32,000 bases of DNA from Dickeya solani IPO 2222. Its GTDB lineage: Bacteria; Pseudomonadota; Gammaproteobacteria; Enterobacterales; Enterobacteriaceae. This document shows positions 15,469 through 23,348 of the stretch, piece by piece (positions within the stretch are counted from its first letter, which is position 1; each line of letters opens with the position of its first letter). The stretch lies in the NCBI RefSeq assembly GCF_001644705.1, contig NZ_CP015137.1:2970001-3002000 (forward strand), given 5' to 3'. The notes beneath the pieces are model-generated. The model had not been told where the DNA came from. It worked only from the letters and a program-made list of their open reading frames with translations, and searched no databases. The position numbers and the translations under genes are program-made.

Positions 15469-15780
15469 AATATTGTTCTCCGTTATCCCGGCGGGATACT
15501 GCTGATCCGATTCTAGTGAGTTGAACCGGCATTTCAAACCGATTTGTCATTTTTTCGGTGAAAAATAGAATGAATAATTCAGTTTTTCCGGGCGTTAACG
15601 GCTGATGAAACCGCATGGAAAGCCGGTTAAATGCTGGTTACCTGCCGTTTACCGGAAAATCTATCCTGGATCACAATAATCAACATTTGTTTTATTTCTT
15701 ATTAAAATGGAATTTTTATTTCATATACAGTAAAGCGGTATCAGCCATCTGTCACCCTAAACCCCAGCAGAGGTGTAACC

Positions 15781-17292
<1,512 letters not shown>

Positions 17293-17319
17293 TTCCACCT
17301 GATTTGCGGGAGCAGAACG

Positions 17320-19251
17320 ATGGACACGTTGAAAATGACCATGGCGCAGGCGCTGGTCCGGTTTCTCAATCAGCAATACCTTGACGTCGACGGCGAGCAA
17401 ACGCCGTTGTTTGCCGGGGTGATGACCATCTTCGGGCACGGCAACGTGCTCGGCATCGGGCAGGCGCTGGAGCAGGATGCCGGGCACCTGCAGGTGCATC
17501 AGGGGTGCAACGAGCAGGGCATGGCGCACATCGCCGTCGGCTTTGCCAAACAGCACCGGCGGCGGCGGGTGTACGCGGTGACCACCTCGGTGGGGCCGGG
17601 CTCCGCCAATCTGGTGACGGCGGCGGCCACCGCCACCGCCAACCGCATTCCGCTGTTGCTGCTGCCGGGGGATCTGTTCGCCAGCCGTCAGCCCGACCCG
17701 GTGTTGCAGCAAATCGAGCAGTATCACGACGCGACCATCAGCACCAACGATTGCCTGCGGCCGGTGTCGCGCTACTGGGACCGCATCAGTCGTCCGGAGC
17801 AACTGATGAGCGCGCTGATCAATGCCATGCGGGTGCTGACCGATCCGGCGGACACCGGCACGGTGACGCTGTGCCTGCCGCAGGACGTGCAGGCGGAAGC
17901 CTGGGATTATCCGGCGGCGTTTTTCCAGCGACGGGTGCATCATCTGGAACGACGTCCGCCGGACGCCGCCCGGCTGGCGCAGGCGGCGGCATTACTGGCG
18001 CGCAAACGCCGTCCGTTGTTGATTTGCGGCGGCGGGGTGCGTTATGCCGGTGCGCACGACGTTTTTCAGCAGTTTGCCGAGCGTTTTAATTTGCCGTTTG
18101 GCGAAACTCAGGCGGGCAAGGGCGCGCTGGTGTCGACGCACCCGCTTAACGCCGGCGGCATTGGCGTCACCGGCGGGCAGGCCGCCAACCGGCTGGCGGC
18201 GCAGGCGGATCTGGTGATTGGCGTCGGCACCCGGCTGACCGACTTCACCACGGCTTCCAAGTCGCTGTTTACCCACCCGCAGGTCGAGTTTTTGCTGCTC
18301 AACGTGGCGGAGTTCGACGCGTTCAAACTGGATGCCACCGCACTGATCGCCGACGCCCGCGAGGGGCTGACGCAACTGGCGCAGATGCTGGACGCCCAGG
18401 GTTATCGCAGCGGCTGGGGGGAAGAAATCGCACAGGCGCGTCTCGACTGGCAACAGGAGCGTCAGCGGCTGTTCGCCCGGCGTGACGAAGACGGACAGGG
18501 GCTGGAAATCGCCGGGCATCTGGACGCGCAACTGGCGGAGTACCGCGAAACGCTTGGCACCCGGCTAACGCAAACCCGCGTGCTGGGGCTGTTGAACGAC
18601 GCGCTGGAAGACGACGCTATCGTGGTGGGCGCGGCCGGGTCGCTACCTGGCGACCTGCAACGGCTGTGGCAGGTGAAAACGCCGGACAGCTACCATCTGG
18701 AGTACGGTTATTCCTGCATGGGGTATGAGATCGCGGCGGCGGTGGGCGCACGGCTGGCGGCGCCGCGACAGCCGGTGTACGCGATGGTGGGCGACGGTTC
18801 CTACCTGATGCTGCACAGCGAGCTGCAAACCGCGGTGCAGGAAGGCATCAAGATAACCGTGCTGCTGTTCGACAACGCCGGGTTTGGCTGCATCAACAAC
18901 TTGCAGATGAGTCAGGGCATGGGCAGCTTCTGCACCGAGAACCGGCGGCGTGATCGGGACAGCGGCACGCTGACTGGCTCGCTGGTGACGGTGGATTTCG
19001 CCCGCAACGCTGAAAGCTACGGCTGCCGGGCGTGGACGGTGCGGGATGAAACGTCGTTGCTGCAGGCGCTGCGTGAGGCGCAGGCGCACCCCGGCCCTTG
19101 TCTGCTGGATATCAAGGTGCTGCCGAAAACCATGACCCACGGCTACGACGCCTGGTGGAATACCGGTACCGCGCAGGTGGCGGACAATCCGGCGATTGAA
19201 GCGGCGGCGCGCCAGGTACAGTTACAGCGCTCGAAAGCGCGGCAGTATTAA
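17320..19251 (+). CDS. iolD: 3D-(3,5/4)-trihydroxycyclohexane-1,2-dione acylhydrolase (643 aa, ThDP-dependent)
   Basis: ThDP-enzyme architecture with the motif [18 protein letters not shown]...[15 protein letters not shown]. Size and iol context fit IolD. Confidence 0.9.
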
Positions 19252-19897: not shown

Positions 19898-19919
19898 ATC
19901 TGATCCTTACCAATATGAT

Positions 19920-19939
19920 GACTGTGTATTTATACACCT
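19920..19939 (-). promoter_or_regulatory. near-consensus LexA box upstream of sbmC (plus strand CTG-N10-CAC)
   Basis: gaCTGtgtatttataCACct has one mismatch in the CAG half and a TA-rich spacer. It lies 23-42 nt upstream of the sbmC ATG and overlaps a TATAAA -10-like element on the minus strand. Confidence 0.45.
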
Positions 19940-20083
19940 TAATATACACCTCAATGTCGCGTGGACACGATGATCGTATTCCGTATGCGAGCGAACTCGC
20001 ATTCTTGTCAGAAGAAGGCGCTGATGTCCTAAACAGGGAAGGCATTGCGGTAAAAACCGGCGGTGTATTTTGCGTCGCGGCTG

Positions 20084-20115
20084 AGGGGGAGGCGATAGCA
20101 TCCCCCTTATTTTTT
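20084..20115 (+). terminator. plus-strand intrinsic terminator (aggggga-ggcgatagca-tccccct followed by TATTTTTT) with no annotated plus-strand gene upstream
   Basis: 7-bp stem and 10-nt loop with a T-run only on the plus strand. An A-run precedes the hairpin on the minus strand, so weak bidirectional function for the islet operon ending at 20139 is possible. Confidence 0.6.
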
Positions 20116-20138
20116 CACAGCCATTCAGCCGCTATGGA

Positions 20139-20810
20139 TTAACGATCGTCGACAATAAAATCCATCGCGATGTGAAAATAGCCATTCATCATTTCAGGAA
20201 CTAATTCAGCCACCGCGCTATCAACGTCCTGACCATAAACCTGTATAGCCCGATCGGTTAATGTCTGTGTGTATACACCGTTTTTAACCTCCGTATGTAA
20301 ATCCCTTCGTGTTTGCAAAAAATCATTCGAGAAGTTAAATCTGGATATAGAGAATTTATCATTTTTTATGATGATAAAATCGATAGGGTTCATGAGGCGG
20401 TCTTTTTTTAGCGTAATTTTGGGGACGTGGGTAGAAAACGCTACGTGATTGTTCTCCGTTACCTCGGCCCATGTTGCATTACACGTATTATTGACTGAGG
20501 GCGTTTTTCCTTGCGCTTTGAATGCATCAGAAAGGCATAGTCCTACTTTTGCGCCGGTCAGCGGCTGCATAGTGTCTTTTTCAAAAAATCGCAAAACGAA
20601 TTTTACAGGGATACGGCCTTTCGAATCTGAAAAACTACACTGACCTCTTTTAAACAGAAATTTATCCAACCTGCCGATAATTTTTTGTTCGTCATTGATG
20701 AGTGCCGTATTTATTATGATCGGTTTTTTCGTCAGGGCGCTGTAAGTTCGGTGTGTGATGCCGTAAAGCCCTAACGCTACCCCGGATATGATGAACATTC
20801 TCCTGTTCAT
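20139..20810 (-). CDS. hypothetical exported protein with a Tat-type (twin-arginine) signal peptide (223 aa)
   Basis: The N-terminus [25 protein letters not shown] has an RR-x-F-I motif, a Gly-rich h-region and a basic c-region. The ATG overlaps the ferredoxin stop (ATGA at 20807-20810), with GAGGAGGA upstream. AT-rich codon usage. No recognisable catalytic motif. Confidence 0.75.
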
Positions 20811-21100
20811 GAGGTCAAATCCTCCTCGGCATGAGACATGATAAACATATCGGATTGTGGATAGGTGACACAGGGGAGTAGATATTTTCCCTGTTGATCT
20901 TCATCGAGGAAGGATTGATCAGAGTCATCATATTTTCCAGTTAACGCTCTGCAGGCACATGAAGAACATGCACCGGCCCGGCAACTGTAGGGTAGTTCTA
21001 AGCCTTCTTCCTCGGCGGCATCTAGTATATATTGATCATCGCTGCATTTTATGGTCTTTGTTTTTCCACAGCTCATGATGTTTATATGATAAATTGGCAT
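20807..21100 (-). CDS. plant-type (chloroplast/cyanobacterial-type) [2Fe-2S] ferredoxin (97 aa)
   Basis: [26 protein letters not shown]...DQSFLDEDQ...LLPCVTYP...HAEEDLT. The ligand pattern C40-x4-C45-x2-C48...C77 is complete. AAGGAGG lies 10 nt upstream, and the ATG overlaps the upstream stop (TAATG). Confidence 0.9.
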
Positions 21101-21351
21101 TATGCGTTCTCCTCCTTTTGAACGTAAACGGTAAATCCTTTGGGTTTTAAATCAGGATGATCAATGGAGATTTCATTTAAAACGTTCATGCACAGGGTAT
21201 AAAGTAGCTCGCCTGCGACACGTTTGCATTGGTTATATTCCTCTTCCGGCAGCTGATTTCCCAGATCGGTCAGTTCTTTTTCAATTAACGTGATGAGTGC
21301 CGATGACTTATTAATGACTTTCCTGGCGACGTCTTTGTCTGAAATGAACAT
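21100..21351 (-). CDS. hypothetical small cytoplasmic protein (83 aa), first gene of the translationally coupled triad
   Basis: Start set at MFISDKD (21351), with GGAG 8 nt upstream. The ORF-track start at 21450 would overlap the upstream gene by 68 nt and has no RBS. No signal peptide and no recognisable domain. Confidence 0.65.
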
Positions 21352-21382
21352 GGTTATTACTCCATAATTTTTTAAGTAGGAA

Positions 21383-21742
21383 TTAAAAATCACACATGGG
21401 GACCATTCCCATACACTCAGCCATACAGCTGTGAAAGGAGCCGCCATCAAACGAGCCAGTTGGTAATGTATATAAGCATTCTTGTATGCATCGGTCTTTC
21501 TTATCTCCCATGCTTGAATTCAGCATGTCGCTGGTTGAATTTGGGATTATGTTATTTTTTTTAATAACGCATACTGCGCTTACTTTGTAAAAATTGGCTG
21601 ATTTTTTTATTTTCTCACGCTCATTTTGGTGTGTCAATTTTGCATTGATATCTCCATCGGCGACACTTGTATTTTGATAAAACAAGCTCATGGTTAATAG
21701 AGTGGAAGTAAATAATACTCTTTTTACAGATAGATTGATCAT
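21383..21742 (-). CDS. hypothetical secreted cysteine-rich mini-protein with a twin CX3C motif (119 aa precursor)
   Basis: Sec-type signal (KR, then VLFTSTLLTMSLF, then SVA/D). The mature ~91 aa carry 6 Cys, including C85-x3-C89, then 16 residues, then C106-x3-C110. AAGGA lies 7 nt upstream. Confidence 0.65.
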   Translation of the reverse strand: MINLSVKRVLFTSTLLTMSLFYQNTSVADGDINAKLTHQNEREKIKKSANFYKVSAVCVIKKNNIIPNSTSDMLNSSMGDKKDRCIQECLYTLPTGSFDGGSFHSCMAECMGMVPMCDF

Positions 21743-21928
21743 CTGTTATTCCTTTAAAGATGTCCTCAGAAGTATGGTTTTTGGGGGTGTTAAATTAAAT
21801 CTATTTTTGTGTGATGTTATTTTTTATTCTGGAAATTAATTGTCGATATTCCTCCATTTTTATGGATATAATGAAAGTGAATGGTTTATGGGCAACTGAA
21901 TGCACCAAATGACTTTAATGCTTTTCTG

Positions 21929-22678
21929 TTATTTCTTCATTAACTCCTGTAACATTTTTTCAGGATTATTCAGGAACGAACGCGTGATTTGGTAATGATC
22001 GGTGTCTTTATAATTTACCTGGGATATGTTATCGCCATCAAATTGATAAATTAACGCATCCGGGTAACCCAAAAGAATCGGGGAATGGGTGGCGATAATA
22101 AACTGCGAATCATCCAGAATAAGATCATGCATTCTGGCGAGCATCGCCAACTGTCTGGCCGGCGACAGCGCGGCTTCCGGTTCGTCGAGCAGATAGAGCC
22201 CTTTACCACTAAAACGGTTCATCATTAATGAGAGAAAAGACTCGCCGTGCGACTGCTCATGTAATGAGTGACCGCCATACGAATTAATCACCGGCGGTCC
22301 GAAGGACGGTTCGGCATCAAGGTGTTCGATTTCGGAGGCCAGGTTAAAAAAGCTCTCGGCACGAAAAAAAAATCCATTACGGGGACGTGGTACGCCTTTG
22401 GCGATTCTCAGGTAATTGGATAGCTCTGAATGCGACGCCCGCGTACTGAAAGTAAAGTTCCGGGTGCCGCCTTCGGGGTTAAATCCCATCGAGACGGCAA
22501 TCGCTTCCAGCAGCGTTGACTTTCCGGTGCCGTTTTCGCCAATAAAGAATGTGACGTTGGGGTGGGGAACAATAAAATCAAACGAACGAATTGCCGGAAT
22601 GGAAAAAGGGTAATGATCGAATGACGCTACTTTATCGCGGTTGAGAGAGATACGGCTGATGTATTGGTTTGAAATCAT
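21929..22678 (-). CDS. stand-alone ABC/SMC-fold AAA ATPase (COG3910-like predicted ATPase, 249 aa)
   Basis: Walker A GENGTGKST, signature-like SHGESF, Walker B LYLLDEPEAALSP and H-loop IIATHSP. No transmembrane or nuclease domain. Confidence 0.85.
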   Translation of the reverse strand: MISNQYISRISLNRDKVASFDHYPFSIPAIRSFDFIVPHPNVTFFIGENGTGKSTLLEAIAVSMGFNPEGGTRNFTFSTRASHSELSNYLRIAKGVPRPRNGFFFRAESFFNLASEIEHLDAEPSFGPPVINSYGGHSLHEQSHGESFLSLMMNRFSGKGLYLLDEPEAALSPARQLAMLARMHDLILDDSQFIIATHSPILLGYPDALIYQFDGDNISQVNYKDTDHYQITRSFLNNPEKMLQELMKK

Positions 22679-22861
22679 TCTGCGTCATTTCCTGCCATGG
22701 ACAGCCCAAAAACACTCACTACCACACCGGGCTAATCATTCCAATAATTTTATTCCCGGCCACGTTATTCCCGATCTCGTGGTTGCCAGTCGCTTACTGA
22801 TGCAATATCCCAGAGATTCACCCGGTTGCGTGAAATTTAGCGAAAATCAGTAACCCTACTG

Positions 22862-22890
22862 ATAGTAATGGTTATCATTATCAAGATCAA
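22862..22890 (-). promoter_or_regulatory. candidate Fur box (22864-22882) overlapping a sigma70-like promoter (TTGATC-17 nt-TACTAT)
   Basis: The minus strand GATAATGATAACCATTACT matches GATAATGATAATCATTATC at 16/19 positions and spans the spacer and -10 of a promoter pointing at the ATPase gene. Confidence 0.5.
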
Positions 22891-23164
22891 CGGCGTTTTT
22901 AGCTGCTGCGACCGCCACGCGGTTCAGCGCCTGATTGAACATCGGTGGTGTCGGCGCTCTTGCTTTTCTGCAATAGAGACAGTGATTGAAATATTTATTT
23001 CATTTTTATTCACCGCGAGGGACGGCGGGACGGTGGTGTCCGCATGCCCTCTGGTCGTTTTATCTGTACGTCAGCTGCAAGACACGACGTCACTCTTCTT
23101 TACTGATTCTATGCCTTGATTACGTTTTTTTTCGTCCTGCAACGCACTGGCAACCCGGCCGCGG

Positions 23165-23186
23165 TTTCGTGATTGTGCTAACACTA
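23165..23186. promoter_or_regulatory. candidate CRP site (CGTGA-N6-TAACA) upstream of iolG
   Basis: 8/10 match to the TGTGA-N6-TCACA core, about 170 bp upstream of the iolG ATG. Confidence 0.25.
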
Positions 23187-23348
23187 TTTTGCTCATATGT
23201 CACCAAAATGTTATCTGGCGCGCAAAAACATAATTTCCAGTTTTACTGAAATTGAAATAAACGTTTTATTGTCTTTACTCTAACAAGCAGAACAGACCCT
23301 GACCCCTACAACTAACCAGTGATACCCCGTGGTATCGAGGGAGTAGCC

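Follow-up and report, generated by a model that had tools for sequence, protein, structure and literature searches.

Since 2008 it has been a puzzle why soft-rot bacteria should themselves encode a plant-like ferredoxin. These bacteria import plant ferredoxin for iron, and the pectocins use the same import route. The question is posed again by a 32,000-nucleotide stretch of Dickeya solani IPO 2222 (contig NZ_CP015137.1, positions 2,970,001 to 3,002,000 of the forward strand; hereafter the window, numbered from its first letter), in which a small accessory islet encodes a stand-alone plant-type [2Fe-2S] ferredoxin. We found that its gene is the third of a four-gene operon (hereafter the cassette) and is translationally coupled to a gene for a protein with a twin-arginine signal. 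Because the paired partner carries an export signal, the ferredoxin is suggested to work outside the cytoplasm and not in ordinary metabolism. The reading that we favour, with a probability of about 45%, and which we infer rather than demonstrate, is that the ferredoxin would be exported in folded form by this partner through the twin-arginine translocation (Tat) pathway and act outside the cytoplasm.

The ferredoxin gene, taken from the list of open reading frames (ORFs), lies at positions 20807..21100 of the minus strand (the plus-strand translation of the same span is full of stops) and encodes 97 amino acids with no signal peptide. The ligand cysteines C40, C45, C48 and C77 are spaced C-x4-C-x2-C-x28-C, and these four columns are invariant across 125+ aligned plant-type ferredoxin sequences. 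A preliminary description of this DNA, which had proposed a search with PF00111, reported these ligands together with an extra C50 (CAC), a 26-residue block, DQSFLDEDQ and HAEEDLT, all of which are present as it stated. The Pfam Fer2 profile (PF00111) matches with an E-value of 4e-21 (75.2 bits, cutoff 21), and with NCBIfam TIGR02008 (fdx_plant) the score is 121.6 bits (cutoff 81.15). In contrast, the protein passes neither the model of the ISC-type Fdx (fdx_isc, 17.3 bits versus a cutoff of 132.1) nor that of YfaE (33.5 bits versus 75), and since both scores are far below the equivalog thresholds, it is neither of these two, in agreement with the earlier assignment to the plant type and not to ISC Fdx. 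By these profiles the product is a plant-type [2Fe-2S] ferredoxin, predicted to carry the cluster; it is of the FerE type (see below).

The window protein is 100% identical to a Dickeya solani protein, and its nearest relatives are found in D. undicola (79% identity) and in Pectobacterium parvum, P. brasiliense, P. versatile and P. actinidiae (60-69%, with the first three of these at 65-69%). Next come cyanobacterial, algal and plant ferredoxins with 54-60% full-length identity. A sequence search of the PDB returned spinach ferredoxin I (1a70) at E 7.9e-28, with solved cyanobacterial and plant ferredoxins matching at E 1e-27 to 1e-31, and a PHROGs search found a match to a phage ferredoxin family. 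The case that the preliminary description had set against its own proposal was an ordinary proteobacterial ferredoxin serving a neighbouring oxygenase or reductase. Weak matches below threshold to the ferredoxin domains of BenC, PaaE and MmoC-type reductases could be taken in this sense, but the nearest relatives outside the cassettes are cyanobacterial and algal, and the annotation of the window proteins places no oxygenase or reductase within the islet or its flanks. Decay of a foreign gene to a remnant would agree poorly with an intact gene under purifying selection (ratio of nonsynonymous to synonymous substitution rates, dN/dS, of 0.13 against the ortholog on a D. fangzhongdai-like contig). 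We consider both of these explanations highly improbable.

The four minus-strand genes of the operon encode, in order, a Cys-rich protein of 119 amino acids with a signal peptide of the general secretory (Sec) type (21383..21742), an acidic, presumably cytoplasmic protein of 83 amino acids without a signal peptide (21100..21351, starting MFISDK), the ferredoxin, and a protein of 223 amino acids with the Tat-type signal MNRRMFI (20139..20810). The 83-residue ORF had been listed from an upstream TTG at 21450; the ATG at 21351 was chosen since it fits the orthologs, which occur in Pectobacterium, including P. parmentieri, and in Pseudomonas lijiangensis. At both ends of the ferredoxin gene stop and start codons overlap, as TAATG with the 83-residue gene before it and as ATGA with the 223-residue gene after it, and a strong GAGGAGGA ribosome-binding site ahead of the latter lies inside the 3' end of the ferredoxin gene. 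The coupled exported partner that had been described earlier is thus borne out by the ATGA overlap and the N-terminal export signal. By the same comparison with the D. fangzhongdai-like contig, dN/dS is 0.07 for the partner gene, 0.11 for the 83-residue gene and 0.38 for the Cys-rich gene, the highest value in the cassette and yet still purifying, so all four genes are maintained.

Apart from the ferredoxin, the cassette proteins had no match in Pfam, NCBIfam, PADLOC, PHROGs or the PDB sequences. When family profiles of the 83-residue and Cys-rich proteins were run against the PDB, the sole match, at E 0.006 and 24 residues long, was to an EF-hand segment of calpain and was taken as chance. 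The Cys-rich protein ends in a Cx3C...Cx3C...C motif, and five cysteines are conserved throughout its family in both the alignment and the hidden Markov model (HMM).

The partner belongs to a very small family: a search of 5.8 billion proteins yielded 13 clusters, and one of 1.84 billion yielded 7 representatives. Across 23 aligned members (22-92% identity to the window protein), the only invariant residues are R3, R4, G86, F97, P130, K135, D144, R157 and D186, and no His, Tyr or Cys is conserved. The arginine pair is thus present in 23 of 23 members, and the phenylalanine of R-R-x-F in at least 90%. The N-termini read (S/N/K)-R-R-x-F-(I/L), and one of them MKRRDFLK, which fits the twin-arginine consensus S/T-R-R-x-F-L-K. 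The hydrophobic core of these signals has values of 1.1-2.15 compared with 1.7-3.5 in the neighbouring Sec signals; it is weaker on average, with overlapping ranges.

Two AlphaFold2 models of the partner were obtained, with a predicted local distance difference test score (pLDDT) of 57 for the first and 76.6 for the second, which used a deeper alignment. For both, the best 50 matches in a Foldseek search of the PDB were all intradiol dioxygenases (best E 3.5e-7, template-modelling score, TM, of 0.45-0.6); a Foldseek search against viral structures gave nothing convincing. The mature partner is accordingly modelled as an intradiol-dioxygenase-like beta-sandwich that would lack the 2-His/2-Tyr iron ligands. 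A catalytic intradiol dioxygenase was considered and rejected, since none of the His and Tyr ligands is conserved and the Pfam Dioxygenase_C profile matched none of the 23 members at E up to 1. Ring cleavage by the partner is unlikely because the two-Tyr/two-His Fe(III) site is missing, and with the fold present and the iron site missing, we did not file the protein as a dioxygenase. An iron-sulfur or disulfide cofactor site was likewise rejected, as no Cys is conserved across the family. Partners that are linked to a ferredoxin are basic: in 20 of 21 the mature protein has an isoelectric point (pI) of 7.5-9.5, versus about 4.1 for the ferredoxins, and the two homologs without a nearby ferredoxin are acidic.

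The pairing of the two genes is conserved well beyond Dickeya. A ferredoxin gene stands beside or near the partner gene in five of the seven family representatives, and directly upstream of it in a metagenomic contig (where the genes overlap), the P. parmentieri clade and Endozoicomonas euniceicola; no ferredoxin was seen in the short contexts available for the two most distant homologs. All four genes are kept in Pectobacterium, P. parmentieri and Pseudomonas lijiangensis, and the ferredoxin-partner pair occurs alone in Endozoicomonas and a metagenome. D. undicola and the D. fangzhongdai-like contig have the gene order of the window at the same iol/sbmC site. P. brasiliense and P. parvum have the order 83-residue protein, Cys-rich protein, ferredoxin and a partner of 224 amino acids, next to pel genes, integrase or toxin-antitoxin genes. 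The P. parmentieri cassette, located between hemN and glnL, consists of the Cys-rich, 83-residue and ferredoxin genes, a 227-residue partner and a DsbA-like gene. In Pseudomonas lijiangensis, the ferredoxin lies ~700 bp from the partner with homologs of the Cys-rich and 83-residue genes between, and a DsbA-like gene then follows. By this distribution the four-gene operon is, as judged from comparative sequence data, a horizontally moving one. Back-translated pattern scans for more partner loci yielded two loci in public genomes and one in metagenomes, the pattern being too narrow.

The DsbA-like genes that end the P. parmentieri (L018 8671-9309, CGKC) and Pseudomonas lijiangensis (L013 6695-7351, CVYC) cassettes encode thioredoxin-fold proteins with signal peptides, and the Dickeya window has no such gene. 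In Endozoicomonas euniceicola and the metagenomic contig the pair is directly followed by Rhs/YD-repeat proteins with Sec signal peptides (loci L010 5977-8373, L011 1355-3994 and L007 1706-5217, the last being the metagenomic YD protein). The Endozoicomonas protein has clear RHS repeats, the Rhs core motif and a variable C-terminus; this C-terminus is an HEHG...NNCQDF domain with a weak PPPDE-peptidase match, and a membrane protein of 105 amino acids is encoded downstream. The metagenomic YD protein is followed by a DUF1835 protein and a protein resembling tetratricopeptide repeats. By eye it shares a Cx3C...Cx3C pattern with the Cys-rich protein, but as the family HMM was blank on it even at E 10, we dropped it as a homolog.

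This kind of ferredoxin has a published history that the preliminary description missed, for stand-alone plant-like ferredoxins of soft-rot bacteria are already described. Nykyri et al. (2012) list FerE as W5S_4691 in the genomic island GI_55 of strain SCC3193 (PMC3486870). According to Sjoblom et al. (2008), as cited in PMC3486870, FerE is reported, for SCC3193 only, to raise oxidative-stress tolerance and affect fitness in planta, and the title of that work calls it a quorum-sensing target. Grinter et al. (2012) noted that Pectobacterium PC1 has a stand-alone 'plant-like ferredoxin' (YP_003017870), some 3 kb away from pectocin M1, and proposed that pectocin M1 arose as a duplication of the stand-alone ferredoxin and part of the adjacent hypothetical ORF (PMC3302902). 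The P. parmentieri cassette includes accessions of SCC3193 and WPP163 and lies in the chromosomal region that contains GI_55; because strain accessions and map position agree, and on these grounds and not on a published FerE sequence, we equate its ferredoxin with FerE. From the sequence comparison, the window ferredoxin is a member of this FerE-type stand-alone Pectobacterium clade and so is not new as a kind. We found no paper on the twin-arginine partner, on the other two genes or on occurrence outside Pectobacterium, and the operon, the partner, the distribution and the residue signature set out below appear to be undescribed so far.

To define this signature, 13 cassette ferredoxins were compared with the 112 other plant-type ferredoxins from the search. 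Position 50 is Cys in 13 of 13 cassette proteins and in 1 of 112 others (Gly in 107), which gives substance to the extra Cys that had been pointed out right after the third ligand. Position 57 is Tyr in all 13 and in none of the 112, which have Val or Ile there, and position 11 is Cys in 9 of 13 as opposed to 0 of 112. The cassette ferredoxins have 7 cysteines in total versus 4-6 in 109 of the 112 others. At positions 50 and 57 the Endozoicomonas ferredoxin has the canonical residues, and the partner in that organism has no Cys.

What leads us to favour export is the combination of the family assignment and operon structure with a pairing that is conserved, a twin-arginine motif, a predicted fold devoid of iron ligands, complementary charges and the Cys-rich signature. 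The ferredoxin, having no signal of its own, would gain its cluster in the cytoplasm; once loaded, the acidic protein would bind the basic partner, and the two would be exported folded through Tat, the ferredoxin travelling as a 'hitchhiker'. Once outside the cytoplasm, they may act with the Sec-exported Cys-rich protein, to which some lineages would add a DsbA-like oxidoreductase or a secreted Rhs/YD protein. Such a module would have its place in the envelope or beyond the cell, serving stress defence or an interaction with a host or competitor, and would not be an electron shuttle of a cytoplasmic pathway. The company of the pair is consistent with this location: its extracytoplasmic neighbours are the Cys-rich protein, the DsbA-like proteins and the signal-peptide Rhs/YD proteins, and no metabolic redox enzyme accompanies it.

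Several points weigh against export and keep our estimate where it is. Both the binding of the ferredoxin to the partner and the export of the ferredoxin are steps that we infer. The Tat-signal profile PF10518 matches just 2 of the 23 partner family members, at E about 0.12, and the window partner has no NCBIfam match at E up to 0.1; since the Tat models barely respond, the assignment rests on the motif. Some Tat substrates carry neither cofactor nor passenger, so that a Tat signal alone requires no passenger. The partner model is of medium quality at a pLDDT of 76.6, with a TM to the dioxygenases of only 0.45-0.6. The ferredoxin also keeps the Phe of SFLD and the acidic C-terminus, which we take to be important for electron transfer to ferredoxin-NADP+ reductase, and given these retained residues an ordinary redox role is possible. 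Finally, an antioxidant role in the cytoplasm would account for the published FerE phenotype just as well.

Such a role is the main alternative. In it the ferredoxin is a cytoplasmic electron carrier, reduced by a ferredoxin/flavodoxin-NADP+ reductase, that helps the cell against the plant oxidative burst, and its neighbours are separate or loosely related. Besides agreeing with what is published on FerE, this would suit a ferredoxin without a signal peptide that has four conserved ligands and the presumed electron-transfer features just named. It leaves unexplained, however, the translational coupling to a Tat-signal protein, the pairing across Dickeya, Pectobacterium, Pseudomonas and Endozoicomonas, and the clade-specific surface changes C50 and Y57 with the extra Cys, and the original FerE transposon mutant could have been polar on downstream genes. 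We regard the cytoplasmic carrier as somewhat unlikely.

We next consider the relation to pectocins, to which the preliminary description had pointed. A tree built by neighbour joining from 81 columns, with 200 bootstraps, unites the Dickeya and Pectobacterium clade-1 ferredoxins with those of P. lijiangensis and the metagenome in one clade at 86.5% support, which falls to 63% when P. parmentieri is added; support for the cassette clade is moderate because the alignment is short. The ferredoxin domains of pectocins M1 and M2, recovered from PDB alignments, pair together (78.5%) outside this clade. Over the 81 pectocin-aligned columns, the window ferredoxin is 56% identical to M1 and 51% to M2, below the 63-68% found with cyanobacterial ferredoxins, and a special affinity to the pectocin domains is not supported. 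The only derived character that the pectocins and the clade-1 ferredoxins have in common is a one-residue deletion before the fourth ligand (DQ-QGKY versus the canonical DQIEAGY), found only in Dickeya/Pectobacterium clade-1 ferredoxins and in pectocins M1 and M2 when the window protein was compared with PDB 8jc1 and 4n58. Either convergence or the duplication that Grinter et al. proposed could have produced it. The recent plant-to-Pectobacterium transfer proposed in the literature is not specifically supported by these sequences; outside the cassettes the nearest relatives come from cyanobacteria and algae, and several bacterial genera are represented in the clade, which would agree better with a cassette of bacterial origin that has been evolving for some time.

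The pectocins nevertheless suggest a different purpose for an exported ferredoxin, as one part of a split toxin. The ferredoxin would target a FusA-type TonB-dependent receptor on competitors, the cargo being the Cys-rich protein or, in other lineages, a secreted Rhs toxin, and the 83-residue protein would provide immunity or act as a chaperone. Toxin delivery through FusA by a plant-type ferredoxin domain is demonstrated by the pectocins (PMC3302902, PMC5095587), the duplication origin proposed for pectocin M1 derives it from a stand-alone ferredoxin and part of a neighbouring ORF (PMC3302902), and Dickeya carries fus operons (PMC5095587), the fus genes of this host lying outside the window. 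The cassettes lie in islets near integrases and toxin-antitoxin genes, Rhs/YD proteins stand directly after the pair in Endozoicomonas and the metagenome (in the former with a core, a variable C-terminal domain and a small membrane protein), and the Cys-rich gene evolves fastest in the cassette by dN/dS. On the other hand, this ratio still indicates purifying selection, the Cys-rich family HMM finds nothing in the metagenomic YD protein, the ferredoxin does not cluster with the pectocin domains, the window cassette has no known toxin or immunity domain in Pfam, NCBIfam, PADLOC or PHROGs, and the route of release from the periplasm is not accounted for. For these reasons we hold this explanation to be improbable. 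Equally doubtful is its more specific form, a 'split pectocin', in which the Tat-carried ferredoxin would join the Sec-exported cargo in the periplasm, possibly via a Cys50 disulfide, as an ancestral multi-subunit system of ferredoxin-guided delivery.

The preliminary description had proposed a receptor-targeting or decoy module. As a decoy, an exported ferredoxin in the periplasm or on the surface would occupy the cell's own FusA, FusB or FusC and so protect it from ferredoxin-bearing bacteriocins. FusB is described in PMC7593965 as binding ferredoxin directly, and the PC1 ferredoxin gene is about 3 kb from that of pectocin M1. A decoy would, however, also block iron piracy from plant ferredoxin, and it leaves the Cys-rich protein, the 83-residue protein, the DsbA-like proteins and the Rhs neighbours unaccounted for; we think it very unlikely. 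No second ferredoxin or pectocin copy was present in the Pectobacterium loci examined.

The setting of the cassette is a low-GC islet (19900..23300) inside the myo-inositol (iol) cluster, bounded by sbmC/iolD on one side and an iolG-like gene on the other. The drop in G+C content (GC), to 36-49% from about 60-65% in the flanks, upholds its earlier description as an accessory islet, and its acquisition by horizontal transfer is supported by this composition. The flanks encode an RpiR-type regulator, IolA, IolD, two IolG-like dehydrogenases, a sugar ABC system and SbmC. No meaningful direct or inverted repeats were found at the islet ends, promoter and terminator scans stayed at chance level, and an Rfam scan of the window found no RNA family. 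The iol/sbmC insertion site is identical in D. undicola and the D. fangzhongdai-like contig.

Upstream of the cassette the islet encodes an ATPase of 249 amino acids on the minus strand (21929..22678; Pfam AAA_15/AAA_21). Its PADLOC matches resemble mad3/AriA/PtuA and it has a PHROGs match too; no nuclease or partner gene adjoins it. The ATPase gene stands beside the cassette in D. undicola and the D. fangzhongdai-like contig (96% amino acid identity, dN/dS 0.03) and is missing from the Pectobacterium, Pseudomonas and Endozoicomonas cassettes, so that the association is confined to Dickeya. Between the ATPase gene and the iolG-like gene are about 640 bp (22679-23318, GC about 47%) with no convincing ORF, in the place of which a gene for 87 amino acids is called in D. 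undicola.

On the other side of the cassette, the partner gene is separated from sbmC in D. undicola and the D. fangzhongdai-like contig by a gene for a PAS-domain methyl-accepting chemotaxis protein and one for a NUDIX hydrolase (locus L020 6727-9471 and locus L023 7436-9285). The window keeps only about 240 bp there (19898-20138), and D. solani has therefore apparently lost about 2.7 kb, or the other two have gained it. A GC-rich hairpin on the minus strand (20085-20106, GGGGGA-tgctatcgcc-TCCCCC), about 30 nt past the partner stop and with no clear T-tract, may be the operon terminator, though it is absent from the terminator scan list. Away from the islet, an ORF of 728 amino acids rich in Arg, His and Gly runs antisense to iolA and iolD (15757-17943, minus strand); it is most likely a by-product of high GC rather than a gene.

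The constant linkage to a Tat-signal partner and two other small proteins, the occurrence in Pseudomonas, Endozoicomonas and uncultured bacteria and the Cys50/Tyr57 signature offer a new approach to the question of what these ferredoxins do. If exported, the ferredoxin would be unusual as a soluble iron-sulfur protein that functions beyond the cytoplasm, and its export could also explain the origin of the pectocin targeting domain. A split pectocin, if real, would amount to a new route for exporting a soluble iron-sulfur protein.

Among known systems, the partner is closest in predicted structure to small secreted intradiol dioxygenases such as those of Tetranychus (5vg2/6bdj) and SACTE_2871 of Streptomyces (4ilv), with which it shares a predicted beta-sandwich of about 200 residues and a presumed extracytoplasmic location; it differs from them in having no Dioxygenase_C match at the sequence level and no two-Tyr/two-His Fe(III) site. 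In its genetic arrangement, the pair is comparable to the Tat 'hitchhiker' pairs of Escherichia coli, hydrogenase-2 HybO/HybC and DmsA/DmsB, which belong to defined redox enzyme complexes. The likeness is that of a twin-arginine protein encoded beside a signal-less, cofactor-bearing partner, whereas in the present pair no cofactor site can be recognised in the subunit with the signal, and co-export is proposed on the arguments given above.

The ferredoxin itself shares its fold family, ligand spacing, length and acidity with the photosynthetic ferredoxins of cyanobacteria, algae and plants (TIGR02008). Unlike these, it occurs in a heterotrophic host, and its genomic partners are exported proteins and not photosynthetic or assimilatory enzymes. 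Pectocins M1, M2 and P contain a plant-type ferredoxin module with all four ligands, but fuse it to a colicin M or pesticin domain, whereas the window ferredoxin is a separate protein with Fer2 as its only domain. It contains no ColM-like sequence, pectocins M1 and M2 match it over their ferredoxin part only, and they have A and V where the cassette ferredoxins have C50 and Y57.

The closest counterparts are the stand-alone ferredoxins of Pectobacterium. That of PC1 falls in the same clade as those of P. parvum, P. brasiliense and P. versatile, and the 'hypothetical ORF' next to it probably encodes the twin-arginine partner, as the conserved gene order would suggest. Relative to the window, genus and insertion site are different, and the first two genes are swapped in Pectobacterium. 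FerE of P. parmentieri (formerly wasabiae) SCC3193 is about 56-60% identical to the window ferredoxin, and its cassette differs in the added DsbA-like gene and the position between hemN and glnL. Like the window protein, it is a stand-alone plant-type ferredoxin of 97 amino acids encoded in a small genomic island, with the same order of Cys-rich, 83-residue, ferredoxin and twin-arginine partner genes and with the same C50 and Y57.

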